This document shows positions 7,941 through 29,096 of a DNA stretch of 64,000 bases, in pieces. Where the stretch lies: contig JBDTNK010000001.1 in assembly GCA_039933775.1 (NCBI GenBank), positions 5,938 to 69,937 on the forward strand. Reading direction: 5' to 3'. This stretch comes from Chloroflexota bacterium. GTDB taxonomy: Bacteria; Chloroflexota; Limnocylindria; QHBO01. Numbering within the stretch: the stretch's first letter is position 1; every line of letters starts with the position of its first letter. Position numbers and translations under genes: made by a program. Below the pieces are notes generated by a model. The model did not search any database, was not told where the DNA came from, and saw only the letters and a program-made list of their open reading frames with translations.

Positions 7941-8609
7941 ATGCCGGGTATCCTTGCCGGCGTACCCATGGCAGCCAGCAAACGGCCGAGCACCTCGAGC
8001 CTCCGCCGATTCATCACATCGCGGCCGTACGTCACCGTCGCCGAGCTGAGGCGCCGGTTCGCTCTCGATGATCCCGACGCCATGTCGTGTCTCGCGCACG
8101 AAGGCGGTCGGGTCTACGTCGGTCTGCCGGAGCGTGAGGCGGTGAAGCTCGAGGATCTCTTGAGACGTGGCGATATCGGCGTCCAGCTGAGCGTCGAGGT
8201 CCGCGCACCGGTCGCGGTCGGCGTCTACCCGATGCGCATCGCGCATTATGTCGTCGACGGCGCCGCGAACGGCAACGACGTCCATCCGGTCGAATCCTTT
8301 ATAGAGACCGATCCAGATGTCGACGGCGCGCAACCGCTCGACGCCGAGATCCCCGCCTTCGAGATCACCGGCCTCGCGGCCGATGTGCCCGATGCCCGGA
8401 CGGTTGACCATGGCGCCGAGCCTGACCATCTTCGCCTCAAGGACGCCATCGCGCCGATGAACGGCATCGGCGATCATCCGTTTCTGCCGCGACCGCGCGG
8501 TGCCAGGGCAACGCGCCACAACGGACGCCCCGTGCCGCACCGCCATCGCCGCATCAGGCACGATCGACCGCAGGATGGGCCAGCGCATTCGCCTTCGGGA
8601 CCGCAATGA
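7941..8609 (+). CDS. Hypothetical protein, translationally coupled to the next gene
   Basis: GC3-rich frame throughout. The stop overlaps the downstream start as ATGA at 8606-8609. No recognisable domain. Confidence 0.35.
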   Translation: MPGILAGVPMAASKRPSTSSLRRFITSRPYVTVAELRRRFALDDPDAMSCLAHEGGRVYVGLPEREAVKLEDLLRRGDIGVQLSVEVRAPVAVGVYPMRIAHYVVDGAANGNDVHPVESFIETDPDVDGAQPLDAEIPAFEITGLAADVPDARTVDHGAEPDHLRLKDAIAPMNGIGDHPFLPRPRGARATRHNGRPVPHRHRRIRHDRPQDGPAHSPSGPQ

Positions 8610-8944
8610 GGGTGGTCGCCATCGCGACCGATCTCATGATGGTGAGCCGCATCGCAGCGGCGGCCGATGTCGCTGCGGTTACGCTGACCCGCCTGAGATC
8701 GCCTCGTGAGCTCGGCCCAGTGGCTGACACCGATCTCGTGATCGTTGATTGGGCGGAGCGGGAGCCGTGGTGGGCCGAATCGCTGGTCGCGTGGCGAGCT
8801 GACGCACAGGTGCCGATCGTCCTCTTCGGGCAGCACACCGACCGCGAGGCGCATAGAGCAGCGCGTGAGGCCGGTCTCGGACCGATGTGGGCCCGATCGC
8901 GCCTCATGCGCGAGCTGCCACGCCTCGTCGCTCCCGCCCGATGA
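8606..8944 (+). CDS. Hypothetical small protein, ATGA-coupled on both sides
   Basis: 112 aa. It is coupled to the upstream hypothetical and to the downstream sulfotransferase, whose ATG at 8941 overlaps the TGA at 8942-8944. Confidence 0.4.
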   Translation: MRVVAIATDLMMVSRIAAAADVAAVTLTRLRSPRELGPVADTDLVIVDWAEREPWWAESLVAWRADAQVPIVLFGQHTDREAHRAAREAGLGPMWARSRLMRELPRLVAPAR

Positions 8945-9861
8945 GCGGCGAACGGCGCCGCCCGGATTTCTTCATTGTCGGCGCGCCGAAATCGGGGACG
9001 ACCGCGATGTACGAGTACCTCAGGGCGCATCCACAGCTCTTCCTGCCTGAGCGCAAGGAGCTTCGGTTTTTCGGCTCCGACCTCGAGGTCCGCGACCGCC
9101 CCCAGCCCAGCCTGGACGCATATCTCGCCTTCTTCGCCGATGGCGGCGAGGCACGGCGGATCGGAACCGCATACGTCTGGTACCTGTATTCGCAGCGCGC
9201 GGCGGCGGAGATCCGCGACTTCGCGCCCAACGCGGACATCATCGCGATGCTGCGCAATCCGATCGAGATGGTGTGGTCCCTCCATTCGGAGCACCTGTTC
9301 AACGGCAACGAGGACATCCGCGACTTCACGGCGGCGCTCGATGCCGAGGCTGACCGTCAGAATGGCCTCCGGATTCCCGCACACGCGCATCTGCCGCAGG
9401 GGCTGCACTACTCGCAGGTCCCGCGCTACGCCGAGCAGCTCGAGCGCTACTTCACCACGTTCGGCCGCGACCGCGTCCACGTCATCCTGTACGACGACTT
9501 CGCGGCCGACGTCCGATCGAGCTATCGGGCCGTCCTGTCATTCCTGGGCGTGGAGCCTGGCTCCTCGCCCCCCGCTTTCGAGGTCATCAACGCCAACAAG
9601 CGCACGCGGAGCGAATGGTTCCGTCACTTCCTGGCTCGTCCGCCCGAGCTGCCGCGCCGGATCATCCGAACCGTTGTTCCGGCCTCGCTGCGGCGCGCCG
9701 CCTACGAGCGCGGCAAGCGGATGAACGTCGCAGCGACGCGTCGCGAGCCTATGCCGTCGGCGACCCGGGAACGGCTCCGGCGCGTCTTCCAGCCCGAGGT
9801 CGAGCGCCTCTCGCTGCTCATCGGTCGTGACCTCAGCGACTGGGTACGGCCGCCTCGGTAG
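8941..9861 (+). CDS. PAPS-dependent sulfotransferase
   Basis: The N-terminal 5'-phosphosulfate-binding loop FFIVGAPKSGTTAM is canonical. There is a 3'-PB-like region MLRNPIEMVWS. Length is about 306 aa. Confidence 0.8.
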   Translation: MSGERRRPDFFIVGAPKSGTTAMYEYLRAHPQLFLPERKELRFFGSDLEVRDRPQPSLDAYLAFFADGGEARRIGTAYVWYLYSQRAAAEIRDFAPNADIIAMLRNPIEMVWSLHSEHLFNGNEDIRDFTAALDAEADRQNGLRIPAHAHLPQGLHYSQVPRYAEQLERYFTTFGRDRVHVILYDDFAADVRSSYRAVLSFLGVEPGSSPPAFEVINANKRTRSEWFRHFLARPPELPRRIIRTVVPASLRRAAYERGKRMNVAATRREPMPSATRERLRRVFQPEVERLSLLIGRDLSDWVRPPR

Positions 9862-10855
9862 CGCCGAGCACCGATTCACATACGTCGAGCAACTGCGCAG
9901 CCGCATCGGCGCCACACAGGCGGATCGTGCAGCCAGCACGCTGCCTGTGGCCGCCGCCGCCAAAGGCGCCTGCGATCTGCGTGGCGTCGACTTCGTCGGT
10001 GACGCGCAGGCTCACACGCGTTTCATCGGGCTTCAGCTCTCGGAGCAGGATCGTGATCTGCGCGCCTTGGGTGCCAGCCAGAAACTCGGCGAACCCGTCA
10101 GCATCGTGCTGCTCGGTTCCGGTCTCCGCCAGCATCTCGGGCAGGAGCACCGAGTACACGATTCGACCATCGGCAGACGCCGCCACGGAGTTGAGCAGCC
10201 GGCCCCAGAGTTGCATCGTCCGGTATGGCAGCTCGCCAAGAATGCGGCGGTGAATGAACGGGAGATCTGCCCCGGCGGCCGCCAGGTCGGCGGCAAGACG
10301 CAGGGTACGCGGCGAGGTCGAGCGGTCGCTGAAGCCGTGGCTGTCACGCACTATCCCCGTCATCAGTGCGGTGGCCAATGCGGGATCGAGGGTGACGCCG
10401 AGGTGGGGGACCAGGTCGGCGATCACCTGGCACGTGGCTGCGGCTGTGGGATCGACGACGTTGATCGACCCGAACCTCGTATTCGTCACGTGGTGGTCGA
10501 TATTGACGATGCGCGCGTCCGCGAACCACGCCGCCCGCTCAAGCGCAATGCTGCCGACCCGCTCGAGCGTGGCCGCGTCGCACACCACTGCCAGGTCGGG
10601 CGGGCCGGACGGCGATGCGACGACGGACCGCATCTCGGACATGTAGTCGTACATCGGGCCTGGGGCGTCGGTGCTCACCACCTCCGCCTGCTTACCGAGG
10701 CTTCGCGCGATGAGCGCCATGGCGACCGCTCCCCCGATCGTGTCGGCGTCGGGGTTCTCGTGGCATAGCGCCGTGACATGGGACGATGCATTGATCGCGG
10801 CGCGCAGCTCCGCGCCGGCAGTGATCGGGTCGAATTGGTTCGTGGGCACGGACAT
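9833..10855 (-). CDS. nrnA: DHH/DHHA1 phosphoesterase, NrnA-like (bifunctional oligoribonuclease / pAp phosphatase)
   Basis: Contains the DHH motif IVNIDHHVTN and the DHHA1 motif GGGHRQRAG. The start was chosen at MSVPTNQF; the track start at 10966 would invade the divergent promoter. Confidence 0.7.
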   Translation of the reverse strand: MSVPTNQFDPITAGAELRAAINASSHVTALCHENPDADTIGGAVAMALIARSLGKQAEVVSTDAPGPMYDYMSEMRSVVASPSGPPDLAVVCDAATLERVGSIALERAAWFADARIVNIDHHVTNTRFGSINVVDPTAAATCQVIADLVPHLGVTLDPALATALMTGIVRDSHGFSDRSTSPRTLRLAADLAAAGADLPFIHRRILGELPYRTMQLWGRLLNSVAASADGRIVYSVLLPEMLAETGTEQHDADGFAEFLAGTQGAQITILLRELKPDETRVSLRVTDEVDATQIAGAFGGGGHRQRAGCTIRLCGADAAAQLLDVCESVLGATEAAVPSR

Positions 10856-11067
10856 CAGGACTCCAACGGAGGGCTCCGCGGCCAGACGGGCGCGGGCCGA
10901 GATTGTAAGCAGACCGCACGCGGAGCGCCCGGACTTCGAACCAAACGCGTCGACTGCGCGCACCACCCGCCGAGCGGAGACGGGGTACTATTGCCGCCGC
11001 CCAACCGGTGAGCGTCCCCACATGCGCGGACGTCGCCCGATGCCATCATTCCACTGGAGATCTCTGC

Positions 11068-12249
11068 ATGTCGATCCCTGTGACCACGTCCGTCCCCCAC
11101 GGCGGCACGCTCATCAACCGCACACTCACCGGTGCGGAGCGCGACTCGGCTCTCAAGCGCGCGGCCGGCCTGCCGCGCGTGACCATCGGCAGCGTCGCCC
11201 TCTCCGACCTGGAACTGATCGGGAACGGCGCCTTCAGCCCGCTGACCGGATTCATGGGCGAGGCCGACTATCTCGGCGTGCGCGACGGCATGCGCCTCGT
11301 GACCGGGCTGCCGTGGTCTATCCCCATCACGCTCGCGGTGGACGGTGCGACCGCGGATACCCTCGAGAATGGCGCGGAAGTCGCGCTGGCGGACGGCGAC
11401 GGTCGCATCGTCGGGATCCTGGAGCTGTCGGAGAAGTATCGCTACGACAAGAGTCAAGAAGCAGCGCAGATCTTCCGCACGACGGAGGAGGCGCACCCCG
11501 CCGTCGCGCGCATCATGGCCGCCGGCGACACCTACCTCGGCGGCAATGTCTGGGTGCTGAACGGTCCGCAGGACCCGCCGTTCGCTGAGTTCCGTCGCAC
11601 CCCAGCCGAGACGCGTGCGATCTTCGCTGAGAACGGCTGGCGCCGTGTCGTTGGCTTCCAGACCCGTAACCCGATCCATCGGGCGCACGAATACCTCACC
11701 AAGGTGGCGCTCGAGACCGTTGACGGACTCATGATCCATCCGCTGGTGGGCGACACGAAGAGCGACGATATTCCGGCCGACGTGCGCATGCGCGCCTACC
11801 AGACCCTGCTGGCGGACTACTACCCGCAGGATCGGACGCTTCTCTCCGTCTATCCTGCGGCGATGCGATATGGCGGGCCGCGAGAAGCGATCTTTCATGC
11901 CATCGCGCGCAAGAACTACGGCTGTACGCACTTCATCGTAGGACGCGACCATGCGGGTGTCGGCAGCTACTACGGAACGTACGACGCGCAACAGATCTTC
12001 GATGAGTTCGACCCAGGCGAGCTCGGGATCACGCCGCTCTTCTTCGAACACACCTTCTGGTGCCACGCCTGCGAGGGGATGGCCAGCTACAAGACCTGTC
12101 CGCATGGCGACGACCAGCACTTGATCCTATCGGGCACGAAGGTGCGCGCGATGCTCTCGAACGGCGAGATGCCCCCGCCCGAGTTCAGCCGGCCACCCGT
12201 CGCGCAGATTCTTATCGAGTCCTACCGCGAGTCCGTCGGCGCCCGCTGA
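11068..12249 (+). CDS. sat: Sulfate adenylyltransferase (ATP sulfurylase)
   Basis: Carries the [11 protein letters not shown] motif, a GRDHAGVG loop and a PUA-like N-terminus. The start was chosen at [15 protein letters not shown] (ATG at 11068). Confidence 0.85.
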
Positions 12250-12282
12250 CGATCCACCACCGCACTGGAGCACAATCCTCTG

Positions 12283-12948
12283 ATGACCGACACCGATACC
12301 GCGCCGCGATCCGGTGGTCCCACCGTCTCGACGACGACCGCGACCACCGCATCGGGCGAAACTATTCACCTTGGCGGTGGCGCGGGCACGCGCCACGACC
12401 GCGAGACGACCGGATTCACGGTCTGGTTCACCGGTCTCTCCGGCTCCGGCAAGAGCACGATCACCCACCTCATCGAAGCGGAACTTCGCCGCCGTGGCCA
12501 CAAGGTCGAGGTGCTCGACGGGGACGTCGTGCGCACCCACCTTTCGAAGGGCCTCGGCTTCAGCAAGGAAGATCGCGACACCAACATCCTTCGCATCGGA
12601 TGGGTCTGCGAAGTCCTGAGCCGGAACGACGTCGTCGCGATCGCGGCGGCGATCAGTCCGTACCGCGACATCCGGGACCAGCTCCGTCGCGACATCGGCC
12701 GCTTCGTCGAGGTCTATGTCGAGGCACCACTCGAGGTGCTCGCCGACCGTGACGTGAAGGGCCTGTACCGCAAGGCGATGGCCGGCGAGATCAAGGGCTT
12801 TACCGGCGTGGACGACCCGTACGAGGCGCCACTCAATCCGGAGGTCGTCTGCCACTCGGACGGCCGCGAAACGCCGGAGGAGAGTGCCGCGAAGGTGATT
12901 GCAAAGCTGGAGGAGCTCGGCTACTCGCAGCCGAACGAGACCCGCTGA
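12283..12948 (+). CDS. cysC: Adenylylsulfate (APS) kinase
   Basis: The P-loop is [12 protein letters not shown], and the rest is an APS-kinase-like body. Its stop overlaps the next gene as TGATG. Confidence 0.85.
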
Positions 12949-14270
12949 TGCGTCCGCGGCGGCGCGTCATCGTCGTCGCTCTCGACGGGCTTGGAATCGA
13001 CCTCTTTCGCGGAGCTCTGGCGCGCGGACACATTCCACATCTCGCAGCGCTGGCCGGACCTGGGGGGCCACGGGCGATTGCGACGCGGCCCCCGGCGAGC
13101 CCCCAGGCCGCGTGGACCACGTTCACGACGGCCTCGAATCCGGGGCGACACGGGATCTTCGGTCTCACGCATCCCGGTCGGCAGCTGCGTATTCGCATCG
13201 CCAGCGCCGACCACGTTCGGATGCCGACATTGTGGGACCGAGCAGCGACCGACGGACTCCGGTCGGTCGTCGTTGGCCTTCCCGGCACGTACCCGGCGCG
13301 CCGAATGTCGGGCTCAATGGTCGCCGGTTACGTCGTTCCCAACCCAGAGCGCCTGTGCTACCCGCGTGCGCTGTCCGCACGCGTCGCTGAGGCAGGGTAT
13401 AGGTCCGATATCGATGTGCGTACGGCGGCGAGCGATCCTGAGCGGTTTGCCGCGGAGCTGCTCACATCTGTCGAGCGCCGAATCGAGGTGATGCGACAAC
13501 TGCTGAAGCACGACCGCTGGTCGCTGGCAGTCCTTGCGTTTACCGAGCTTGATCGATGGGGTCACGCCTGGCGGCGGCGTGTCGCCGCCGGTGATCATGA
13601 CGCCCTGGTGGTCGGCGACTCGATCTTGTCATCGATCGATCGCTTCTTCGGCTTCTTGCGCGAGGCGTATGGAGCCGCCAAATTCCAGGTCCTGTCCGCC
13701 AATGGCATTGCCCCCGTGGACCATCTGCTCAACCTTGATGGATGGCTCAGAGATGCCGGCTACCTTCACCGGGAGGACGGCCAGCTCGGCGGCAGGACTG
13801 TTGCGTTCTCGATGGAAGCCGGCCGAATCTACATCCACGCGACGCGCATGTTCGCCGACGGGAGGCTCGGTGGCGGCTCGGTGTTGCCGTTGATGGACGA
13901 GATCGCTGAAGGACTGACGGCGCTGCGCTCGCCCGACGGCGCCCTCCCGTTACAGGCCGTCGTCCGCCGGCGTGATCTATACGACGGACCTCACGCACGC
14001 GTCGGCCCGCATCTCGTGGCCGTGCCTGCACCGGGGTGGGCGGTTGTCAGCTCTCGGAAGCTTCCCCTGGTCAGCAAAGCTGCGGATTTCGAGGGTGGTC
14101 ACCGACATGACCTGGCGTTCGCCGTCGGCGACGCCGCGGACGATGGCTCACCGGTGACCCTGGAAGACCTCGGCGCGACCGTCCTCGCGGATCTGGCGGT
14201 GTATGACGATGACGTGGATGGCACGGCTCTTCGTGCTGGTGGGGCCAAGGCGCAACGCAACTCACGATGA
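12948..14270 (+). CDS. Alkaline-phosphatase-superfamily protein (type I phosphodiesterase / nucleotide pyrophosphatase-like)
   Basis: The N-terminus VIVVALDGLGIDLF is typical of PF01663-like AlkP-core enzymes. The gene is 440 aa and translationally coupled to cysC. Confidence 0.55.
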   Translation: MRPRRRVIVVALDGLGIDLFRGALARGHIPHLAALAGPGGPRAIATRPPASPQAAWTTFTTASNPGRHGIFGLTHPGRQLRIRIASADHVRMPTLWDRAATDGLRSVVVGLPGTYPARRMSGSMVAGYVVPNPERLCYPRALSARVAEAGYRSDIDVRTAASDPERFAAELLTSVERRIEVMRQLLKHDRWSLAVLAFTELDRWGHAWRRRVAAGDHDALVVGDSILSSIDRFFGFLREAYGAAKFQVLSANGIAPVDHLLNLDGWLRDAGYLHREDGQLGGRTVAFSMEAGRIYIHATRMFADGRLGGGSVLPLMDEIAEGLTALRSPDGALPLQAVVRRRDLYDGPHARVGPHLVAVPAPGWAVVSSRKLPLVSKAADFEGGHRHDLAFAVGDAADDGSPVTLEDLGATVLADLAVYDDDVDGTALRAGGAKAQRNSR

Positions 14271-14422
14271 CCTGAGGTCGCTCGGTGCTTGAGCGCACCA
14301 TCGTGCCGCCGCGCGCTATTGCGCTGGCCGTACCCTTGCCTCAGGATCGCGACTAGTACTTATTACTCACTTATCACCCACTTATCGGCTAGATTCAGCC
14401 GGGTGGGGGACGCACGGGGCGA
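14270..14422 (+). promoter_or_regulatory. AT-rich intergenic region upstream of the priming transferase operon (putative promoter)
   Basis: The only markedly AT-rich stretch in the window is gactagtacttattactcacttatcacccacttatcggctag. It contains reiterated TTAT(C/T)AC-like words and precedes a long co-directional gene run. Confidence 0.3.
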
Positions 14423-14455
14423 GTGCCTTCGCCCCGAGGGGAGGCCCAGCGTTAC

Positions 14456-15178
14456 ATGGTCACCATCCGACGGCGTACCGTCGCATCGCTCGAAGTGCCA
14501 CGAGCGGTGCAGCCCCGAGCGCAGGCGCGGCCTCCGGCCGCGTTGACGTCTCGTCGAAAGCGAGCTTTCGATCTGATCGCGAGCGTCGCCATATTCGTCA
14601 TCATCTCGCCACTCTGGTTCTTGATCGCGCTCGCGATCAAGCTGAGCTCGCCTGGCCCTGTGCTGTTCCGCCAGGAGCGGATCGGTGTCGGTGGCCAGCC
14701 GTTTACGCTCTACAAGTTCCGCACGATGCACAACGGGGTCAGCGATGAGGTGCATCGGCGTTTCGTTACCGGGATGATTCTCGGCAGCGTCGAATCGACG
14801 GCAATCTCAGCGTATGACGGAGCCTTCAAGCTCGCCCGTGATGCTCGAGTGACGGTGGTTGGGCGCTGGCTGCGGCGGACCTCGCTCGACGAGCTGCCGC
14901 AGCTCCTCAACGTGATCGCGGGGGACATGTCGCTCGTCGGTCCTCGGCCGCCCCTCGCGTACGAGGTTGATCGGTATGAACCATGGCAGCACGAGCGACT
15001 GAGTGTGCTGCCCGGGATCACCGGGCTGTGGCAGGTCTCGGGACGCAACCGCCTCAGCTATCTGGACATGATCCGGCTGGACATTGCCTACGCGAGAGAC
15101 TGGACGTTCCGCCGCGATCTGCTCATTGCGATCAAGACGCCGTGGACGATGTTCGTCGATCGCGGGGGTGCTGCGTGA
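14456..15178 (+). CDS. Undecaprenyl-phosphate sugar-1-phosphate transferase (bacterial sugar transferase family, priming glycosyltransferase)
   Basis: The single N-terminal TM is AFDLIASVAIFVIISPLWFLIALAI. It also has RIGVGGQPFTLYKFRTM and the catalytic motif LDELPQLLNVIAGDMSLVGPRP, typical of WbaP C-terminal/PssY-type enzymes. Confidence 0.85.
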   Translation: MVTIRRRTVASLEVPRAVQPRAQARPPAALTSRRKRAFDLIASVAIFVIISPLWFLIALAIKLSSPGPVLFRQERIGVGGQPFTLYKFRTMHNGVSDEVHRRFVTGMILGSVESTAISAYDGAFKLARDARVTVVGRWLRRTSLDELPQLLNVIAGDMSLVGPRPPLAYEVDRYEPWQHERLSVLPGITGLWQVSGRNRLSYLDMIRLDIAYARDWTFRRDLLIAIKTPWTMFVDRGGAA

Positions 15179-16293
15179 TGGAGAAGCTTGGAATCGGCGT
15201 CATTGGATGCGGGTACTGGGGGCCAAACCTGATCCGCAACTTCGCCCGTCACGACGACGCGCATGTCGTCGCAATCTGCGACATGCAGATCGATCGGGCA
15301 TCGCGCGTCGCAGGCTGGTACGGCGTCTCGGCGGTAACCGACGATCCCGCGATGCTCATCAACAACCCTGAGGTGTCGCTCGTGGTGGTCGCGACGCCTG
15401 CCGGATCGCATTTCGGCCTTGCCAAGGCCGCCCTTGAGGCTGGCAAGCACGTTCTGATCATGAAGCCGATGACGACGCGCACGGACCATGCCGAGGAGCT
15501 GATCGAGCTCGCTCGAGCCCAGGGCGTGTTGCTCGCCGTCGACCACACCTTCGTCTACACGGCCGCTGTTCGGAAGATGCGAGAAATCGTGGTGGCCGGC
15601 GATCTGGGAGACGTCTTCTATCTTGACAGTGTCCGGATCAATCTCGGCGTCTTCCAGTCGGACGTAAACGTCATCTGGGATCTGGGCCCGCACGACATCA
15701 GCATCATCGACTACGTGCTCGGTGGTCGCCTGCCGAGCGAGGTGTCGGCGGTCACCGCGGCGCACGCGGGGAGCCGTCACGAGAACATCGCCTACCTGAC
15801 GATGCGCTACGGACCGAGCGTCCTGGCACACGTGCACGTGAATTGGCTCGCGCCGGCCAAGATCCGCCGAACGATCGTCGGTGGTTCGAAGCAGATGCTG
15901 GTCTACGACGACATGCAACCTTCAGAGAAGCTGCTCGTGTACGACCGAGGTGTGACGATCTCCCCTTGGGAGGATCCCGAGGAAATCTACAACCAGCTGG
16001 TGTCATATCGAACCGGCGATGTCACGGCTCCGCGCCTCGACGACCGTGAGGCGCTCGCGACCGAAGTCGACGAGGTGGTACGCGCGATCCGCGGAGGGCC
16101 GGCGCCTCTGAGCGACGCGGCGCTCGGGCTGCGGACGGTGCAGATCCTCGAAGCTGCTGAGCGGTCGGCACGCGATGGCTCCCGTCCCGTCACATTCGAC
16201 GGCGGTCGCACCCCACCGCTGGCGGCGACGACCGCGTTCGCTGTCGGAGGCGCACCGGTTCACTCACTGCGCGCCCCAGCGACCGGCGACTAG
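15178..16293 (+). CDS. Gfo/Idh/MocA-family NAD(P)-dependent sugar oxidoreductase
   Basis: The N-terminus has the Rossmann motif KLGIGVIGCGYWGPNLIRNF. The start overlaps the upstream stop as ATGA. The gene sits in a glycan locus, like WbpB/WlbA-type nucleotide-sugar dehydrogenases. Confidence 0.75.
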   Translation: MEKLGIGVIGCGYWGPNLIRNFARHDDAHVVAICDMQIDRASRVAGWYGVSAVTDDPAMLINNPEVSLVVVATPAGSHFGLAKAALEAGKHVLIMKPMTTRTDHAEELIELARAQGVLLAVDHTFVYTAAVRKMREIVVAGDLGDVFYLDSVRINLGVFQSDVNVIWDLGPHDISIIDYVLGGRLPSEVSAVTAAHAGSRHENIAYLTMRYGPSVLAHVHVNWLAPAKIRRTIVGGSKQMLVYDDMQPSEKLLVYDRGVTISPWEDPEEIYNQLVSYRTGDVTAPRLDDREALATEVDEVVRAIRGGPAPLSDAALGLRTVQILEAAERSARDGSRPVTFDGGRTPPLAATTAFAVGGAPVHSLRAPATGD

Positions 16294-16418
16294 CGGCCGT
16301 TGCGCCCGACGGCGCACGATGGGTCGGGCCTGAATGAGCAAGGCTCGGCCGATGGGTGCTGCGCCGGGCGGTTTCGACAGCGGTCGACTAGGATACGCCA
16401 ACAAACCTGAGGTATGCG

Positions 16419-17558
16419 ATGGAGCTGCGGTCTCTGCTGCGCCTGATCCTCCGCCATTGGTGGGTCATCATCCCGATTTTCATCATCACCGTCGGCTCGA
16501 CGGTCGTGCTGACGTTGAGCCAGCGCCCGATCTACCAGAGCACGACAACGCTGCTCGTCACACCGTCAACCGATTTGAGCGCCACGCAGCAGGAGATCAT
16601 CAACTCACTTCAGCTCCTGAGCCGCCAGAGTGAGATCGCAGCCACCTATGCGCTCGTGGCCTCGAGCGCCACTATTCGCCAAGCGGTCACCGACGAGCTC
16701 GGCATCACGCCGATTGACCGCCGCAACCAGCAGCTCGACCTGGACGCGCGGCTCCTTCCCGGGAGCACGGTCATCACGATCGATGTGCGGTCCACCGATG
16801 CGCAGCTCGCGACGGCCTACGCCTCTGCGGTCGGAGACGAGCTCAAAGACTTCGTCAGCAACCTAACCGAGACGTTCGATCTGTTGACCCTCGATCCGGC
16901 GAGTGTTCCCGGCGCTTCGATCGCGCCGAATGTGCCGCTCAATATCGCGCTCGGCGTCGCAGGCGGACTGGCGCTTGCCGTTGGGGCCGCGGTCGTACTA
17001 CACCTGCTCTCGCCCGCCCCGCGGCTTCGCCCTCGAATGGACATCATCGATCCGGAGACCTGGGCGTACAACTTCCCATTCTTTCTGTTCCGCCTTCGTC
17101 AGGAAATGAGCCGGACACGGCGTGTCGGAACGGCGACGTCGCTGGCGATCATCGACGTGAACCACCGGGAGTCGCTCGACTCCGCCTCGCCACATGGCCG
17201 GGCTGATGCCCTCGTGCGGGTCTCCATCCTGTTCGACACCCACCTGCGGCTCGAAGACACTGCAGCACGGCTCGATGACATGACATTCGCGCTGCTCCTG
17301 CCGGACACCACCGAACCAGATGCGGTCCGGATGGTCGAGGCGCTTCGAGCGCGGATCGCGAGCGCGGTGCTCAGCATCAGCGAGCACAAGGAGCCGATGC
17401 GTGCGAATCCTGCGGCGGGGGTTGTCTCGTATGCGGGCGACGCGATGAGCGAGCAGGAGCTGCTCGATCGTGCCCGCAAGGCGCTGCAGCGCGCCGAAAC
17501 GTCTCCCAGCGGCCGAACCGAGACGTTCACCACCGCGAATGCCGGACGCCCGGCCTGA
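16419..17558 (+). CDS. Wzz-like polysaccharide co-polymerase (chain-length determinant) with a C-terminal degenerate GGDEF-like domain
   Basis: The N-terminal TM WWVIIPIFIITVGSTVVLTL is followed by a Wzz-like periplasmic region and a second TM GVAGGLALAVGAAVVLHLL. The cytoplasmic tail carries GGDEF-fold landmarks: DDMTFALLLPDT in place of GGDEFAVLLP, a possible I-site RLED four residues upstream, and a terminal ELLDRARKALQRAE. Confidence 0.6.
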   Translation: MELRSLLRLILRHWWVIIPIFIITVGSTVVLTLSQRPIYQSTTTLLVTPSTDLSATQQEIINSLQLLSRQSEIAATYALVASSATIRQAVTDELGITPIDRRNQQLDLDARLLPGSTVITIDVRSTDAQLATAYASAVGDELKDFVSNLTETFDLLTLDPASVPGASIAPNVPLNIALGVAGGLALAVGAAVVLHLLSPAPRLRPRMDIIDPETWAYNFPFFLFRLRQEMSRTRRVGTATSLAIIDVNHRESLDSASPHGRADALVRVSILFDTHLRLEDTAARLDDMTFALLLPDTTEPDAVRMVEALRARIASAVLSISEHKEPMRANPAAGVVSYAGDAMSEQELLDRARKALQRAETSPSGRTETFTTANAGRPA

Positions 17559-19122
17559 CGCAGGGGCCGACGAGGGGATTCTCGACGCCGCGAAAGGCGG
17601 AGGGATCGCCTTCGCCGGACGCGTCTTCACCTGGACCGCACGGCTCGGCCTCGCCGTGCTGCTCGCCCGGCTGCTTGGAGCGGACGAGTATGGCCTCTAC
17701 AACCTGGCACTGACAGTGGCCACCGTCATGGCGAGCTTCCCGTCGCTCGGGCTCGACTCCGCGCTTGTGCGCTTCATGGCGGTGTACTCCTCTCGAGGGG
17801 ATTTAGGCCGGCTCCGCGGAAGCCTTCAGATCGGCATCGGGATCCCGCTCATACTGAGCGTGCTCGTGGGCATCGTCCTCTTCTTCGCAGCCGAGCTGAT
17901 TGCGACCGGGATCATGCATGACCCGCGGTTGACTCCACTGCTCCAGATCGCCAGCGTCCTGGTACCCGCCACCGTCCTCAACCGGCAGCTCGCGGCCGCA
18001 CTCCAGGGCCTCCGCAGGCTTGGGGACGCGGTGCGTGCCGAGCAGTTCGCCCAGCCGGCCTCGCGAGTGATCATGCTGCTTGCGATCGCGGCATTTGGCC
18101 TCACGGCGGCGTGGGCCGTCGCAGCGTCGGCGCTCGCGGCGCTCGTCGCAACCCTGCTGATGATCCTGTTGCTGAGCCGCGCCGCCGGAGCAATCCGCGG
18201 CGTGCTGGCCAGTAGGGAGACTCGCGCACTGACGAGCCATGCTGTGCCCGTCTTCTTCTCGAATGTCGTGAACACCTTTGGCGGGAACCTCCAGACGTTG
18301 TTCCTCGGCGCGATGAGCAGCGCCGCATCCGTCGGTGTCTTTGCCATCGCCAATCAGATCACGCTCGTCGGCTCGATGTTTCACCAGTCGGTGGCCGCAT
18401 CCTCGATGCCGGTCTTCGCCGAGTACGCCGATCGCGGCGATCGCTCAGGCAGCGAGCGGCTGTATCGGATCACCTCAAAGTGGACCTTCACGCTCAACCT
18501 GCCACTCTTCTGCCTGGTGCTTGTCTTTCCGGATGCGTTCCTCGCACTCTTTGGGCGCGAGTTCGAGGCCGGCTCAACCGCGCTGATCATCCTTGCCTGG
18601 GGCGCGCTCGCGAACGCGGCCACGGGGACGTCGGGCGCGATCCTCGATATGGCCGGTCATACGCGTGTCAAGTTCCTGAACTCCACACTGTCGCTCGGCC
18701 TGGCGATCGGCCTCAGCCTGATGCTCATTCCGCCGCTCGGCATCGTGGGAGCGGCGATCGCGGCGGTGGGCTCGGTGGCCCTGGTGAACCTGCTTCGGGT
18801 GCTCGAGGTCGCTCTACTGGTGCGGATCACGCCGTACGACGTGGGCTGGTTGAAGCCGATCCTGGCCGGCGCACTCGGCCTCGGCGCCGGGCTGCTGGCG
18901 GCGACGCTCGTCGGAGGGAGCGACACGGTTGCCGGCTTCGCCGCCGGCGCAATTGCACTGCTTGCCGTCTATGCCGCAGTGGTGTTCGCTCTCGGCATCA
19001 GCGACGACGACCGGATGGTCCTGGGCCGAGCCGGACGGAAGATCACACGCATCGGGCGCAAGCGCGGACGCCGGACAGGATCGGCCAAGCCGGTGCTCGA
19101 GTCGGACCGGCACGAGCGATGA
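17539..19122 (+). CDS. Polysaccharide flippase (Wzx / MOP-superfamily polysaccharide biosynthesis protein)
   Basis: Roughly 12 predicted TM helices. The N-terminal region has the typical LLGADEYGLYNLALTV motif. Confidence 0.75.
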   Translation: MPDARPDAGADEGILDAAKGGGIAFAGRVFTWTARLGLAVLLARLLGADEYGLYNLALTVATVMASFPSLGLDSALVRFMAVYSSRGDLGRLRGSLQIGIGIPLILSVLVGIVLFFAAELIATGIMHDPRLTPLLQIASVLVPATVLNRQLAAALQGLRRLGDAVRAEQFAQPASRVIMLLAIAAFGLTAAWAVAASALAALVATLLMILLLSRAAGAIRGVLASRETRALTSHAVPVFFSNVVNTFGGNLQTLFLGAMSSAASVGVFAIANQITLVGSMFHQSVAASSMPVFAEYADRGDRSGSERLYRITSKWTFTLNLPLFCLVLVFPDAFLALFGREFEAGSTALIILAWGALANAATGTSGAILDMAGHTRVKFLNSTLSLGLAIGLSLMLIPPLGIVGAAIAAVGSVALVNLLRVLEVALLVRITPYDVGWLKPILAGALGLGAGLLAATLVGGSDTVAGFAAGAIALLAVYAAVVFALGISDDDRMVLGRAGRKITRIGRKRGRRTGSAKPVLESDRHER

Positions 19123-22483: not shown

Positions 22484-24739
22484 GTGCCCGCCGTGCCGAA
22501 AATCTTGAAGGTCGTCGCTGTTCTGGCGGTGACGTTCGCGCTCATTGCCCCGGGCCTCGTGGTGGCCAAGAACGACAAGGCGACCGCGCCGCAGCAGGCG
22601 TTTGTCCGATTGTTGCGTCACATCGAGGTGGCTGAGTTCGGGATCGCGCATCCTGCCGGGCTGGCGTATGTCCCGGCCACGCGCGCGCTGCTCGTCATCG
22701 ACGCGTCCGGCGCGGCGAGCCATCTGGTTGGCGTCAGCGAGGACGACCTTGGGCCCGTTGCGCTGCCTGCCGTGCCAGATTCGGCCGCGGCGGTGACGTT
22801 CGACGCGGCCACGAGCGCCCTCGTCGTCATCGACGGCAGCGCCGTCGTGAACGAGGTCGCGGCACCAAACGGCCGCCCATCTGGTCCTCCGACGCAGGGC
22901 CGCGCCGTCGCTCCCCAGACCGTGACCGGCACGGCAATAAGTGGAGGTGAGCTGCTCGTGGGCGACGGCAGCGGCTTCGTCGCGCTTGCGCCGGACGCTT
23001 CGCGCGGGTCGAGGCGTGTCGACATGAGCCGCCTGGGAGAGCCGCTTGTTGGCATCGCCGTCGATCCGGAGAGCGGACATCTCTACACCTTGGGCAGCAG
23101 GTCGCGGACGCTCTTCGAGCTCGACACGACCGGAACCGTGCTGTCCACGCGCGATCTCTCGACGCTCGGGCTGAGCGAGCCCCAGGCCATTGTGGCCGCG
23201 CCCAGCGCCGACACGACGGACGATGCGACGGCGATCAGCCTATTCGTCGCCGATGCCGGCCCAAGCGGCGGCACGGGGACGGTTGTCGAGCTGGGTCTAC
23301 AGGCACCGCAGATTTCCCCACAGCTGGCCCTCGCGGCGGCGAGCAACGCGACCCTCGTCCGCACGATCGACACATCCGGATGGCCAAGCCCGGATCCTTC
23401 GGGCATCGCCTACAACACGGCGAGTAATCGGCTCATGGTCGTCGACGGTGAGATCGACGAGATGCAGATCTATTCCGGGTTCAATGGCTACGAGTCGACG
23501 CTCACCGGTACGCTCCTGCGGACGTTCGACACGCTCGGCTGGCGGTCCACCGGACCGTGTGGTGGCCAATCAGGTCTCCAGACCTGCCTGAACAAGGAAC
23601 CGGTCGGCGTCGCGATCAACCCGACGAATGGCCACGTCTTCGTTTCGAACGACTCGAAGAAGACGGTCTGGGAGGTCACTCCCGGTGGTGACGGCGTCGT
23701 AGGCGGCAGCGATGACGTGCTGCGCTCGTTCCGGCTCGATACTCTCGGCGTCGGCGATCCCGAAGGCCTCGGGATCGGCGGCGGACGGCTCTGGGTCGCC
23801 GACGGCACGAACCGCGAGATCTGGTCGCTCGCCCCGGGTAACGACGGGCTCTTCGGGACGCCCGACGACCCCATCGCCCACTTCGACACTGATTCGCTCG
23901 GTGAGCCGGATCCGGAGGGCGTCGACTACGATTCCGCGACCGGACACCTGTGGGTCGTGAGTAACGACACCCAGCAGACACTGCTCGAGGTCACGACTTC
24001 GGGTTCGCCGGTGCAGGTCGTGGACATCTCGGCGTCTCAGGCACGCTCGCCAGGCGGCGTGGCGGTTGGACCAGCGAGCGGCGGTTCGGGTCGCAGCGTC
24101 TACGTCGCGGATCGCGGTGTCGACAACAATGACAATCCGAACGAAAATGACGGACGCATCTACGAGCTGGCGATCGGCTCCGCGCCAGATCCTACGCCGA
24201 CACCGGTGCCCACCCCAACGCCCGTCCCCACCGCCACGCCGATTCCGACGGCGACGCCGAGCGCGACACCATCGGCGACACCGGTTCCGCCGGGCACCAA
24301 CCTGGTGGTCAACGGCGACTTCGAGGCCGACGTCAATGGGGACGGCCCGGACAACTGGTCGACGCACGAGCATTTCACTCGGTCGACCACGGCCGCTCAC
24401 GCAGGGACGTACGGTGGCTTGCACAGCGCGACAGATGGGAGCCGATACAACATCCAGCAGGATGTGCCGGTCGTGGGTGGCAACGCATACGACTTCAGCG
24501 GCTGGGTCAACATCCCGAACGCCAATGGCACGACGCGGTTTATCCTGAAGGTCCAATGGCGTAGCAATCGGAATCTTGGCGTGACTGAGATCGCGAAGTT
24601 CACGACCGCGACCAGCGGGTGGGTCCAGGTCAATGATTCGGTAACGGCGCCTGCGGGTGCCACGGCAGCTCGACTGATCATGACGCTGCGGAACTTCAAC
24701 GGGACCGTCTGGGTCGACGATTTTCGCCTGCAGCGCTGA
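22484..24739 (+). CDS. Secreted protein with a beta-propeller-like repeat region, a Pro/Thr linker and a C-terminal CBM4/9-like carbohydrate-binding module
   Basis: A signal-peptide-like N-terminus (KILKVVAVLAVTFALIAPGLVVA) leads into repeated DPSG/DPEG...Y/W blades. A PT-rich linker PDPTPTPVPTPTPVPTATPIPTATPSATP follows. The C-terminal domain begins NGDFEADVNG...W, as in CBM_4_9 modules. Confidence 0.55.
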   Translation: MPAVPKILKVVAVLAVTFALIAPGLVVAKNDKATAPQQAFVRLLRHIEVAEFGIAHPAGLAYVPATRALLVIDASGAASHLVGVSEDDLGPVALPAVPDSAAAVTFDAATSALVVIDGSAVVNEVAAPNGRPSGPPTQGRAVAPQTVTGTAISGGELLVGDGSGFVALAPDASRGSRRVDMSRLGEPLVGIAVDPESGHLYTLGSRSRTLFELDTTGTVLSTRDLSTLGLSEPQAIVAAPSADTTDDATAISLFVADAGPSGGTGTVVELGLQAPQISPQLALAAASNATLVRTIDTSGWPSPDPSGIAYNTASNRLMVVDGEIDEMQIYSGFNGYESTLTGTLLRTFDTLGWRSTGPCGGQSGLQTCLNKEPVGVAINPTNGHVFVSNDSKKTVWEVTPGGDGVVGGSDDVLRSFRLDTLGVGDPEGLGIGGGRLWVADGTNREIWSLAPGNDGLFGTPDDPIAHFDTDSLGEPDPEGVDYDSATGHLWVVSNDTQQTLLEVTTSGSPVQVVDISASQARSPGGVAVGPASGGSGRSVYVADRGVDNNDNPNENDGRIYELAIGSAPDPTPTPVPTPTPVPTATPIPTATPSATPSATPVPPGTNLVVNGDFEADVNGDGPDNWSTHEHFTRSTTAAHAGTYGGLHSATDGSRYNIQQDVPVVGGNAYDFSGWVNIPNANGTTRFILKVQWRSNRNLGVTEIAKFTTATSGWVQVNDSVTAPAGATAARLIMTLRNFNGTVWVDDFRLQR

Positions 24740-24760: not shown

Positions 24761-26221
24761 ATGACCTCGCGGGCTGAACCGGTCAACCGGCCGCCGATCG
24801 CTGCCCTTGCACTGGGCCGGCCGTTCGACGCGCGCTGGAGCGGTGTCGCGACCGTGGTCGTTGGCATCCTGGCTGGACTGGCGATCGCCTATTTGATCGC
24901 AACCGGCAATGGCCAGATGGCCATCGGAGCCGCCCTCGCGGTGCCCATCGCCGCGCTGGTGGTCGGCGATCCATTCATCGGGGTGATCCTCTGGGTCCTC
25001 ACCGTCCCGTATTTCAGCGGCCTTTCCGCCGAGACCGGGCCGGTGATCTGGGCCGTCCATCGGTTCGGCATCCCTGCGGTGATCGTGCTGACCGCGGTTC
25101 ACAGCCGCCTGGGATGGCGTCGCTGGGGCCTCCGCGTCGGGTGGGTCGATCTGTTTCTTGCGGCATTCATCGCGATCGGGCTAGTGAACATCGTGTTCCT
25201 GGCACCAAACACACAGCGCATGATCGCGTCGTTCTACGACAAGATGATTGTCCCGATCGCGCTCTTCTGGCTGATCCGAGCGATGGCACCTCGCCGCCGG
25301 GAGCTGCGCATGCTGGTCGGGGCGGGGCTGATTACGCTGGTGACCCAGTCGACCATCGGCTTGCTGTCCTGGGTGGCCCCGAGCGTGCTTCCCTCAGCTT
25401 GGCTCGGGCGCGCCGGAGAGCGCACGACCGGCACGCTCGGCGGCCCTGCTCCGTTCACGATCACGCTCGTCCTTTTCGGGATCATCGCGGTCCACGCAGC
25501 GGCCCAGTCGCCCTCGGTGCGGCATCGGGCGGTCATGATCGGTGCCACCCTGCTCGCGGCGGTTGCGATCTTCCTGTCGCTCTCTCGTGGGAGCTGGTTA
25601 GGCGCGGGCATCGCCTTCACCGGGGTCGCATTGATCCACCGCCGTCTCGTGGGGCTCATGGCAGTCATCGCAGTCTTGACGATCGTAGCGCTGAGCGCCG
25701 GACCGCTCGCCGAGCAGGTGGCCTTCGCCCAGGAGCGGATAGGTGACGACGACACGGTGGAGTCGCGAATTGTCACGAACGATGCATCGCTGCGCATGAT
25801 CGAGGCACAGCCGATCATCGGGTTTGGCTTCGGAAACTTCGAGCGATACGACGAGTCGTTCAAACGGCGCGTGGGCGACATCCCGCTGAAGTTGGGTGGG
25901 AGTTCCCACAATACCTACCTGGCAATGCTCGCGGAGCAGGGCATTCCCGCCACCACGCTCTACCTCGCCGTGCCGGTCGTCCTCCTCGCGACGACGTTCC
26001 TTCGCTGGCGGGACCTGCCGCCTTCTGGCCTGGGCAGCCGCGTGTTCGTGGCAGCCCTGTGGCTCGCGATCATCGACATGTTCGTGGTCCAGAATTTCCT
26101 CGAGATGATCCACTCATCGTACTGGGCGACTTCCCTCTGGTGGCTGACGCTCGGCCTCATCGCATCGGTTCTCGACCGCGCCGACGAGCGACGGCGGTTC
26201 GATACCGCGGTGGACCGATGA
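24761..26221 (+). CDS. O-antigen ligase/polymerase-family membrane protein (Wzy-like)
   Basis: About 10-12 TM helices. It carries the Wzy_C signature region FLSLSRGSWLGAGIAFTGV with a large loop. The stop overlaps the next gene as ATGA. Confidence 0.7.
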   Translation: MTSRAEPVNRPPIAALALGRPFDARWSGVATVVVGILAGLAIAYLIATGNGQMAIGAALAVPIAALVVGDPFIGVILWVLTVPYFSGLSAETGPVIWAVHRFGIPAVIVLTAVHSRLGWRRWGLRVGWVDLFLAAFIAIGLVNIVFLAPNTQRMIASFYDKMIVPIALFWLIRAMAPRRRELRMLVGAGLITLVTQSTIGLLSWVAPSVLPSAWLGRAGERTTGTLGGPAPFTITLVLFGIIAVHAAAQSPSVRHRAVMIGATLLAAVAIFLSLSRGSWLGAGIAFTGVALIHRRLVGLMAVIAVLTIVALSAGPLAEQVAFAQERIGDDDTVESRIVTNDASLRMIEAQPIIGFGFGNFERYDESFKRRVGDIPLKLGGSSHNTYLAMLAEQGIPATTLYLAVPVVLLATTFLRWRDLPPSGLGSRVFVAALWLAIIDMFVVQNFLEMIHSSYWATSLWWLTLGLIASVLDRADERRRFDTAVDR

Positions 26222-27183
26222 TCACCCCCACCGCTGAACCGCTGCCGGTGCCGCCACCAGAGCGGATCGACTCGATCTTCGTCGTCGGTCTCAGCCGGAG
26301 CGGCACGACGCTGCTGCGCAACATCCTGAACCGCCACGACGCCATCGCCATCGCGCCCGAGAACCACTTTCTTGGGCATCTCATCGCCAGTGAGGGCGTG
26401 CGGCACAAGCTCCGCCGCTTCGGCGACTTATCCGACGACGCACGGCTTCGCAGCATGGTCGACTTTTTTTACGACGGCGGTCTGAGCCGCGCCAGCCGGC
26501 TGCGTGACCCGAGCCGCTTCTGGGCGTGGCTCGCCAAGCGCGTCCCTCGCGAAGAGCTCTTCGCGCGGCTGGTAGCGACAGATCGCAGCGAGCGAGCGAT
26601 CTTCGGGGCCGTGCTGGATGCCTATGCGGTGCGGAAGGGTAAGCGGATTCGCGGCGAGAAGACGCCGGCCCATCTGCGCTACGTGCCGACGCTGCTTGAC
26701 TGGTATCCCGGAGCCCGCGTGATTCACATGATGCGCGACCCCCGTGCGATCTTCGTGTCGGAGCTGCGGCGGCGACGAGCGACCGGCGGCGGCAAACCCT
26801 ATCGGTTCCTGGCGGCTGTACCGCCGCTGCTTGCCGCCTTCGTGCTGATCGAGACGACCGTCATCTGGGTCGAGGGGGCGTGGCGCGCGGGGCGCTACGG
26901 GCGCACGTTCCGTGGTCGGTATCGGATGCTTCGGTTCGAGGATCTCGTCCGCCGTCCCGAGGTCGAGCTGCGCCAAGTCTGCGCATGGCTCGGCCTCGAC
27001 TTCCAGGAAGAGATGCTCGAACAGCACGTGGTCAGCGTCGGTGCGCGGCTTGGCGAGCAGGGCATCGACAGCGAGGCGGCGACGCGCTGGCAGAGCAACA
27101 TCCCCGCGTGGGCCGATTGGTGGTTCCGCACCGCCCTCCGTGGCCGCCTGCGAACTTTCGGATACGAGACGGCAGACCGATGA
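26218..27183 (+). CDS. Sulfotransferase (paralog 1 of tandem array)
   Basis: The 5'-PSB loop is IFVVGLSRSGTTLL and the 3'-PB region is IHMMRDPRAIFVS. ATGA-coupled on both sides. Confidence 0.75.
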   Translation: MITPTAEPLPVPPPERIDSIFVVGLSRSGTTLLRNILNRHDAIAIAPENHFLGHLIASEGVRHKLRRFGDLSDDARLRSMVDFFYDGGLSRASRLRDPSRFWAWLAKRVPREELFARLVATDRSERAIFGAVLDAYAVRKGKRIRGEKTPAHLRYVPTLLDWYPGARVIHMMRDPRAIFVSELRRRRATGGGKPYRFLAAVPPLLAAFVLIETTVIWVEGAWRAGRYGRTFRGRYRMLRFEDLVRRPEVELRQVCAWLGLDFQEEMLEQHVVSVGARLGEQGIDSEAATRWQSNIPAWADWWFRTALRGRLRTFGYETADR

Positions 27184-29092: not shown

Positions 29093-29096
29093 ACCG

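Follow-up and report, generated by a model that had tools for sequence, protein, structure and literature searches.

Dedicated supply of 3'-phosphoadenosine 5'-phosphosulfate (PAPS) for sulfated products is known from rhizobia, where nodPQ provides it, and the polysaccharide gene island described here likewise carries sulfate-activation genes of its own. The island lies in a 64-kb stretch of Chloroflexota DNA (contig JBDTNK010000001.1, positions 5,938 to 69,937; hereafter the window, numbered from its first letter), and the region 8.9-14.3 kb at its head encodes an ATP sulfurylase (Sat), an adenosine 5'-phosphosulfate (APS) kinase (CysC), a DHH/DHHA1 phosphoesterase (hereafter the DHH protein) and a protein of the alkaline phosphatase superfamily (hereafter AlkP). 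With a probability of roughly 0.6, this region is interpreted as the sulfate-activation and by-product-disposal head of a sulfated-polysaccharide island of the Wzx/Wzy type of about 41 kb, in which the DHH protein would remove the by-product 3'-phosphoadenosine 5'-phosphate (pAp) and AlkP would be an altered member of its family.

DHH-family pAp phosphatases have been described in archaea. MtPAPP of Methanothermococcus thermolithotrophicus, encoded beside the genes for ATP sulfurylase (ATPS) and APS kinase (APSK), is a fast and specific pAp phosphatase, whose sequence is reported to align with homologues of the DHH family in the DHH motif only (PMC10322725). In Pyrococcus yayanosii, PyapApase is a DHH pAp phosphatase whose gene belongs, according to PMC8268124, to a cluster for assimilatory sulfate reduction. 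The same paper lists three families of pAp phosphatases, namely CysQ, DHH/NrnA and the PHP enzyme Cv1693. Other DHH relatives are the bifunctional NrnA of Bacillus subtilis and Rv2837c/CnpB of Mycobacterium tuberculosis. Like MtPAPP and PyapApase, the DHH protein of the window has DHH and DHHA1 domains with intact metal and GGGH motifs, is encoded beside ATP sulfurylase and APS kinase genes and would be expected to remove pAp. Unlike them, it stands in a context of polysaccharide sulfation in a bacterium, whereas theirs is assimilatory reduction in archaea, and, unlike MtPAPP, it is NrnA-like by sequence (E ~1e-34 to Rv2837c). A recycling of pAp built into the island thus appears well supported, but its novelty is lowered because DHH pAp phosphatases beside sat/APS-kinase genes have already been published.

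Three further comparisons place the island among described systems. (i) Like the xss (synechan) cluster of Synechocystis PCC 6803, it combines Wzx/Wzy machinery with PAPS-dependent sulfotransferases; unlike that cluster, as described in the title and abstract of PMC8205485, the island has nine sulfotransferases together with sat, cysC and a candidate pAp phosphatase, in a soil Chloroflexota lineage. (ii) The PHP 3',5'-bisphosphate nucleotidase Cv1693/TrpH (RNase AM) and CysQ, whose folds are unrelated to DHH, are absent from the window, where the DHH gene stands in their place, and have the same genomic role, that of a pAp phosphatase beside cysC and AlkP, in L004/L009, L071 and L006 (labels of this kind denote contigs or genome loci with relatives, compared with the window). 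(iii) AlkP shares its fold and PF01663 with Xac NPP (PDB 2GSN/7N1S) and PhnA (PDB 3SZY/1EI6), and the wider AlkP family keeps the catalytic set; unlike these enzymes, with which the identity does not go beyond 15-18%, the family consists of cytoplasmic proteins of about 445 amino acids (aa), whose genes have a genomic link with cysC or with a gene of the PAPS-reductase fold, and the copy in the window is without the nucleophile residue and two metal ligands.

Sulfate-activation module

The module comprises the following features (position in the window, strand, description; ORF, open reading frame):

8887-9861, plus strand: sulfotransferase, the first of nine (PF13469, E 1e-15; PF00685, E 5.5e-11)
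9833-10855 (ORF to 10966), minus strand: NrnA-family DHH/DHHA1 phosphoesterase, 340 aa, proposed pAp phosphatase (PF01368 and PF02272)
10856-11067: divergent intergenic region between the DHH gene and sat, 212 bp, with GGAG before both ATG codons
11068-12249 (ORF from 11008), plus strand: ATP sulfurylase (sat), 393 aa (PF14306, PUA_2, 184 bits; PF01747, 332 bits)
12283-12948, plus strand: APS kinase (cysC), 221 aa (PF01583, 202 bits, E 9e-60)
12946-12950, plus strand: TGATG, with one base common to the stop codon of cysC and the start codon of AlkP (translational coupling)
12948-14270, plus strand: AlkP-superfamily (NPP/PhnA-like) protein, 440 aa, cytoplasmic (PF01663)

Tested against curated NCBIfam models, Sat scored 556 bits with NF003166 (cut-off 387) and CysC 273 bits with NF002059 (cut-off 244); by these scores both are bona fide members of their families. 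The starts at ATG 10855 (DHH gene, minus strand) and ATG 11068 (sat) were set on the basis of the lengths of the relatives (340 and 393 aa) and of the GGAG upstream of each, which gives the 212-bp spacer. Only one weak promoter-like site is present in this spacer; a scan of 9700-14600 for sigma-70 promoters and terminators returned sites no more numerous than in shuffled sequence, and in an Rfam search of 8000-16500, run with a permissive threshold, all matches were sub-threshold noise, so that the spacer has no riboswitch. On its other side, the DHH gene converges on the first sulfotransferase gene with a 29-bp overlap (9833-9861), and this convergent pair is also found in L088, L089 and L090. 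The sulfotransferase carries a visible PAPS-binding loop (PKSGTT) in its translation.

In the proposed mechanism, Sat would form APS and CysC would form PAPS, activities predicted from membership of their families; the nine PAPS-type sulfotransferases would then sulfate the sugar repeat unit and release pAp, following the established chemistry of their family; and the DHH/DHHA1 enzyme would hydrolyse pAp to give AMP plus phosphate and relieve product inhibition, as family membership, intact motifs and comparative context suggest. AlkP, which is coupled to cysC and belongs to a widespread NPP/PhnA-like family tied genomically to PAPS-related genes, would no longer be a canonical two-metal hydrolase, the nucleophile and two ligands being lost in the lineage of the window; it may have been kept as a partner that binds a ligand with altered catalysis or none, its production matched to that of CysC where polysaccharide assembly begins (AlkP, Bac_transf, GFO). 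The module as a whole probably removes the toxic by-product pAp. Sulfated polysaccharides, which are of interest to industry, are regarded as rare among bacteria, and nine sulfotransferases with their own PAPS supply and their own pAp disposal suggest the production of a heavily sulfated polymer by a lineage of Chloroflexota that is abundant in soil.

The arrangement recurs in five other contigs, namely L002, L003, L088 and L091, and also L001, whose sequence is that of the window itself. It is not a chance arrangement, since it recurs in relatives and the cysC-AlkP pair recurs across phyla.

Gene content was established by Pfam scans of the major ORFs over the whole 64 kb, among which no PAPS/APS reductase (cysH) or sulfite reductase domain was found. 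This bears on the possibility that sat-cysC is the only sulfate-activation pair of the genome, serving general assimilation as well as sulfation from a pool that is not dedicated. Sat and CysC are ordinary family members, and in L089 and L090 the island lacks sat-cysC at this position, which shows that such a pair can reside elsewhere; the pair of the window could also feed assimilation. However, the lack of cysH and sulfite reductase in the window speaks against a shared pool, as do 80 metagenomic loci with the closest sat relatives, in which sat is accompanied by DHH, transporter, sulfotransferase or AlkP genes and a PAPS-reductase-like neighbour was seen in only 2 of the 80 (with a weak search query). 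A single general-purpose pair is therefore regarded as conceivable but doubtful.

A reading made from the letters of the sequence alone (the sequence-only reading) had proposed a self-contained PAPS cycle for sulfation at this locus, and context and comparative genomics largely bear this out, with nine sulfotransferases as adjoining consumers. Every gene and domain that it named was recovered in its place, as were the DHH and GGGH motifs, the 212-bp spacer (to the base), the convergence of the DHH gene on the sulfotransferase gene and the TGATG overlap. Its view that sat and cysC make PAPS agrees with the NCBIfam scores, the lack of cysH and cysI that it had noted nearby extends to the major ORFs of the whole window, and its assignment of the DHH protein to the NrnA type is supported by the comparisons that follow, in which the grouping with other DHH clades that would have refuted it was not seen.

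Candidate pAp phosphatase of the NrnA family

The DHH protein matches PF01368 (54.8 bits) and PF02272 (39.5 bits), both above gathering scores, and contains a DxD motif (D36-A-D38), D93, the DHH motif D120-H-H122 (nt 10490-10498), D171 and the substrate motif GGGH (G300-G-G-H303, nt 9947-9958). Its best matches in the PDB are 8ioo (Deinococcus), 5jju (M. tuberculosis Rv2837c), 5cet (NrnA) and Thermotoga TmPDE, with E values of 1e-33 to 1e-35; the c-di-AMP phosphodiesterase 9n0l follows at 6e-8 and family-II pyrophosphatases at ~1e-6. By these matches, the protein groups with enzymes of the NrnA/CnpB/TmPDE type and not with RecJ, GdpP or family-II pyrophosphatases. Its gene has a dN/dS ratio of 0.20 relative to L088.

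The genomic context of the DHH gene is related to sulfate throughout. In every DHH-bearing locus (L002, L003, L088-L090, L092-L094, L107), the gene lies between a sulfotransferase gene and either sat-cysC or a CitMHS/Na_sulph_symp transporter gene. Among relatives with no more than 56-62% identity in the DHH protein, the partner on the divergent side varies and stays sulfate-related: a 586-aa CitMHS/TrkA_C/Na_sulph_symp transporter replaces sat-cysC-AlkP opposite the DHH gene in L089 and L090, and in L092 the DHH gene is divergent from sat-cysC-transporter, without an AlkP gene. Related clusters without a DHH gene carry a Cv1693/TrpH-like PHP gene (Limnocylindrales L004/L009, and also L071, L075, L039 and L067) or an Inositol_P (CysQ-like) gene (L006), and the PHP or CysQ-like gene appears to fill the role of the DHH gene there, as judged from family membership and position. 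This swapping of DHH, PHP and CysQ types among related clusters amounts to a natural experiment, according to which removal of pAp is a required part of such clusters. Furthermore, L005 and L008 have neither a sulfotransferase gene nor a DHH gene between the proline dehydrogenase gene (ProDH) and AlkP, where the window has both.

Several points count against a role of the DHH protein, and of the module, in sulfation. The NCBIfam equivalog model for NrnA, NF053633, gave 85.7 bits, under its cut-off of 350; because of this score the accurate label is NrnA-family or NrnA-like and not NrnA orthologue. The DHH gene might be the only housekeeping nanoRNase gene of the genome, and the housekeeping genes for PGI, 6PGD, G6PD, OpcA, 6PGL and ProDH are also syntenic among the relatives; because unrelated housekeeping genes share this conserved synteny, gene order within the clade is weak evidence. 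It has accordingly to be considered that the DHH protein is the housekeeping NrnA of the lineage, degrading nanoRNA and dinucleotides, that its place beside the island is inherited synteny and that hydrolysis of pAp is at most a side benefit. Metagenomes of the Limnocylindria type contain a great many DHH homologues with 56-77% identity, as expected of a core gene, the housekeeping synteny flanking the DHH region is conserved too, about 20 cysC-AlkP loci of other phyla have no DHH gene within 10 kb, and NrnA enzymes of bacteria are bifunctional according to PMC8268124. Against this, the gene is embedded amid sulfation genes, away from the island border, and always has a sulfate-related divergent partner (sat-cysC-AlkP, sat-cysC-transporter or a transporter alone); the PHP or CysQ-type genes of DHH-less clusters and the joint absence of sulfotransferase and DHH genes in L005/L008 also point away from it. 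A purely housekeeping NrnA is thus a tentative alternative, and a pAp phosphatase that serves the island is preferred.

AlkP protein of the window

AlkP matches PF01663 with 91.4 bits (cut-off 23). Its sequence used singly had no match in the PDB, and a profile search was required; its AlphaFold2 model has a predicted local distance difference test (pLDDT) score of 91.6, and Foldseek places Xac NPP and PhnA best (7n1s, 3t02, 2gsn; E ~1e-14, template modelling score 0.56-0.66). Among the NCBIfam models, there is no curated one that covers the family, and literature searches found no paper on it or on its link to sulfation. By sequence, the family is an uncharacterised, cytoplasmic, NPP/PhnA-like one of about 445 aa.

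No GGAG or ribosome-binding box of its own precedes the AlkP ATG, and an overlap of 1-4 nt between cysC and AlkP is kept in L088, L091 and L003. Downstream, Bac_transf always follows AlkP in the clade of the window. The gene is under purifying selection: its dN/dS ratio is 0.18 relative to L091 and 0.16 relative to L088, values similar to those of Bac_transf (0.15-0.17) and of the DHH gene (0.20). A decaying pseudogene was considered as an explanation for the changes described below and was rejected, the frame being intact in at least five genomes at these ratios.

The catalytic set of the family (Asp, Ser or Thr, Asp..His, Asp-His and His) is almost universal across the 117 members for which residues were tabulated. 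The nucleophile column was set by profile alignment to Thr64 of PhnA, for which both the wild type and the T64A mutant are present in the PDB. At these positions AlkP of the window has D13, S51-P52, D202, H206, A251-N252 and H385. In brief, Pro52 occupies the nucleophile column, with Ser51 adjacent, where nearly all other members have Ser or Thr, and four of the six metal ligands are kept (D13, D202, H206 and H385) while the Asp-His pair, which supplies both ligands of the nucleophile-activating metal, is replaced by Ala251-Asn252. Relatives 62-88% identical to AlkP have Ser-Pro and Ala/Thr-His in common. In L005, L008 and L010, which belong to another branch of the island type, the protein is independently degenerate, with His206 replaced by Arg and the Asp-His pair by Ala-Tyr or Ala-His.

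The sequence-only reading was right in calling this partner of APS kinase uncharacterised, as far as the curated families and the literature searches can tell; its suggestion of a PAPS/APS or pAp hydrolase is not supported. A canonical PAPS, APS or pAp hydrolase is unlikely in the window because of the Pro at the nucleophile position and the loss of two metal ligands. An active hydrolase of the PAPS cycle, acting either as 3'-phosphatase on pAp or as PAPS/APS pyrophosphatase to trim the pool, would explain the close and conserved coupling to cysC and the purifying selection on the gene, and it would fit the fold match to Xac NPP and the retention of D13 and of the ligands of the M1 metal (D202, H206 and H385). 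Enzymes of the NPP type cleave phosphoanhydride bonds of nucleotides. Ser51 might also serve as nucleophile through a shift of one residue, with Asn252 as a metal ligand, which would speak against inactivity. However, the column occupied by Pro is set by T64/T64A of PhnA and the second metal site has changed from Asp-His to Ala-Asn, a pAp phosphatase would be redundant in a family that shares operons with DHH, PHP or CysQ-type phosphatases (in L071 even in frame), and there would be no point in hydrolysing PAPS or APS next to the genes for their synthesis. An active hydrolase is consequently held to be very unlikely, and AlkP of the window is probably a catalytically altered, non-hydrolytic derivative produced stoichiometrically with CysC.

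The idea that the family is a non-orthologous replacement of CysQ, made redundant here by the DHH protein, was dropped as leading idea because (i) canonical AlkP genes share operons with PHP genes (L071, L075, L039, L004/L009) or a CysQ-like gene (L006), (ii) degenerate AlkP copies occur in the DHH-less loci L005, L008 and L010, and (iii) L089 and L090 carry a DHH gene without an AlkP gene. The co-occurrence of known pAp phosphatases with the family argues that the family itself is not the pAp phosphatase.

In L071 (9023-11419), directly after cysC, a Cv1693-like PHP phosphatase (E 1e-44 to 2yb1) continues in frame into AlkP. Its interpretation as a Rosetta-stone fusion was set aside: there is no stop between the two parts and a real fusion may be present, but GGAGG and ATG precede the AlkP part, and two genes with a lost stop, or an assembly error, are possible. 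For this reason the locus was counted as evidence of a shared operon only.

AlkP family and its association with cysC

A scan of one genome per species gave 587 confirmed relatives of AlkP, and the best 80 loci of these 587 were analysed; enough upstream sequence for a test of the upstream neighbour was available in 67 of them. A cysC gene lies directly upstream of the AlkP family gene, on the same strand, in 19 of the 80 loci. A gene for a 274-aa protein of the PAPS_reduct fold, closest to FAD synthase, CysD and PAPS reductase, takes this place in another 12, all from Nitrospirota, Thermodesulfobacteriota or close relatives, so that one or the other gene is found upstream in 31 of the 67 testable loci. 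The cysC-linked genes belong to at least nine named lineages, including Blastocatellia, other Acidobacteriota, a bin labelled Clostridia, Zixibacteria, Schekmanbacteria, Ktedonobacterales, Chloroflexia, Roseiflexaceae and Ardenticatenaceae, in addition to unclassified bins. Triads of sat, cysC and AlkP recur in varying order (L022, L043, L044, L047, L049, L063, L064 and L079, and the metagenomic L102, L104, L105 and L140); the order in Aminicenantes L079 is cysC-sat-AlkP, with cysC about 1.4 kb upstream. The triad, whose occurrence in other genomes the sequence-only reading had put forward as a check, thus recurs elsewhere, the pair of cysC and AlkP is widespread, and adjacency of cysC and AlkP is far beyond chance for a gene present about once per genome, even allowing for related genomes. 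For islands of the Limnocylindria type, the constant neighbour of AlkP is the downstream Bac_transf-GFO/IDH/MocA pair, and not cysC.

Members of about 445 aa are found in Acidobacteriota, Chloroflexota, Nitrospirota, Zixibacteria, Schekmanbacteria, Aminicenantes and other lineages. They form one large clade of the neighbour-joining tree, which unites the group of the window with the cysC-linked and the PAPS_reduct-linked proteins; longer paralogues (512-800 aa) branch apart. The genes around the family are of polysaccharide type (GT2, GT4, flippase, YfhO, APH-like kinase) and not cysH or sir. We take the family to act on, or to sense, a nucleotide of the PAPS pathway in polysaccharide biosynthesis. 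Removal of pyrophosphate, which would pull the Sat reaction, is conceivable, but the close link is to cysC and not to sat.

It is unlikely, though not negligible, that the proteins of about 445 aa are unrecognised enzymes of PAPS metabolism, possibly AlkP-fold sulfuryl or phosphoryl transferases acting on polysaccharide precursors, of which the window would hold a nucleophile-less, non-catalytic partner of CysC maintained by purifying selection. A narrower alternative, drawn by analogy with phosphoethanolamine transferases, is that the short cysC-linked proteins are PAPS-using transferases which form a covalent sulfo- or phospho-enzyme through the Ser/Thr, and that the copy in the window is a relic made redundant by nine sulfotransferases. 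Sulfuryl transfer is known in the AlkP superfamily. Operons of the Blastocatellia type, cysC-AlkP-AlkP-AlkP-YfhO-Wzx-AlkP, in which no canonical sulfotransferase was found, would agree with such a transferase, as would the polysaccharide and non-assimilatory character of the loci and the accompanying pAp phosphatases, which imply a producer of pAp nearby. On the other hand, we know of no biochemical precedent for a PAPS-dependent sulfotransferase with the AlkP fold; the search for canonical sulfotransferases was made by tblastn with the enzymes of the window, which distant ones could escape, and such enzymes are indeed present in loci such as L030 and L055; in Nitrospirota, AlkP is paired with a protein of the adenylyltransferase/PAPS-reductase fold; and the extra paralogues fall in other clades of the tree. 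This transferase is judged improbable, and a PAPS-pathway role that is altered in the window is retained for AlkP. The family, a conserved and unannotated partner of APS kinase in many phyla, is the most useful lead from this work, and knowledge of the reaction that it carries out could supply bacterial sulfation with a step now missing or with a new class of enzyme.

Two recurrent arrangements were observed. In Blastocatellia (L016:9206-20802 and L017:9253-20469, and also L012, L020 and L026), the order is cysC, AlkP (448 aa), AlkP (537 aa), AlkP (547 aa), YfhO-like (888 aa), Wzx and AlkP (601 aa), and no canonical sulfotransferase was detected in these operons by tblastn with the enzymes of the window, a search that distant ones could escape. 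In 12 loci of Nitrospirota and relatives (for example L011:1229-5700 and L068:9965-12724), the pair of PAPS_reduct-fold and AlkP genes lies between genes for a 7TM-GAF histidine kinase and a sigma-54 response regulator, flanks that we take to resemble the regulators of PEP-CTERM exopolysaccharide loci.

Polysaccharide island and neighbouring genes

The nearest named relatives of AlkP and of the DHH protein are from Candidatus Limnocylindria and Limnocylindrales, both proteins are identical to database entries of a Chloroflexota metagenome-assembled genome, and the genome of the window is that of a Limnocylindria-like Chloroflexota with high G+C (64-73% in the window). The island extends over about 41 kb (about 8.9-50.3 kb) between housekeeping genes identified by Pfam, namely PGI-like, 6PGD, G6PD, OpcA, 6PGL and proline dehydrogenase at 1-7.8 kb, and CysS, fatty-acid synthesis genes and others past 50.3 kb. 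Components of a Wzx/Wzy system are all present: an initiating transferase (PF02397), a flippase (PF01943), a polymerase (PF04932), a chain-length determinant (PF02706) and GT4 glycosyltransferases, of which there are several; the island further encodes two UDP-sugar dehydrogenases, an epimerase, a DegT aminotransferase and a formyltransferase. Nine sulfotransferases score above the gathering scores of Sulfotransfer_1/2/3 (starts at 8887, 26059, 26880, 28091, 29079, 30101, 31023, 31909 and 40064). The main features downstream of AlkP are as follows:

14423-15178, plus strand: Bac_transf initiating sugar-phosphate transferase (PF02397, E 9e-62)
15178-16293, plus strand: GFO/IDH/MocA sugar oxidoreductase (PF01408 and C-terminal domains; 371 aa in relatives)
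16419-17558, plus strand: N-terminus of a Wzz chain-length determinant fused to GGDEF (PF02706 and PF00990)
17470-19122, plus strand: Wzx-type polysaccharide flippase (PF01943/PF13440)
24761-26221, plus strand: Wzy-type polymerase (PF04932)
26059-32712, both strands: block of seven sulfotransferases (PF13469/PF00685/PF03567)
26059-27183, 26880-28169, 28091-29092 and 29079-30113, plus strand: members of this block
30101-31219, 31023-31916 and 31909-32712, minus strand: members of this block
40064-41017, minus strand: ninth sulfotransferase (PF13469, E 8e-15)
44924-46300, plus strand: Na_Pi_cotrans-like membrane protein (PF02690)

The Na_Pi_cotrans-like protein may be the importer of anions (sulfate or phosphate) of the island. 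Its homologues adjoin AlkP or sat genes in L004 (797-2008), L006 (9272-10474, between two AlkP genes) and L009 (2049-3260), and L089, L090, L092 and L097 have a CitMHS/TrkA_C/Na_sulph_symp transporter instead.

The fusion of Wzz and GGDEF is kept in all related islands and suggests a control of polymer length or export linked to cyclic di-GMP. Three large proteins are probably located at the surface or secreted, namely a protein with NHL repeats and CBM_4_9 (22484-24739), a protein with three CWB2 cell-wall-binding repeats and a weak pectate-lyase-like region (37819-40074) and a second pectate-lyase-like protein (40798-42588); they may anchor or trim the polymer. The segment 19113-22405 encodes a protein of about 505 aa without family match, followed by a 591-aa protein resembling APH-type kinases, both of which are conserved in L002, L003 and L090; in L073, an APH domain is fused to a methyltransferase upstream of cysC-AlkP. 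Between the proline dehydrogenase gene and the first sulfotransferase gene (7941-8944), there are two small overlapping ORFs of 222 and 112 aa without family match, and L002, L003 and L088-L090 have genes of similar size and position. Finally, G+C drops to 63.5-66% at 12001-16000, over AlkP, Bac_transf and GFO, compared with 68-72% in the flanks, and the ORFs of AlkP and Bac_transf fall under the filter on G+C at third codon positions (GC3), with the neighbouring genes above it.

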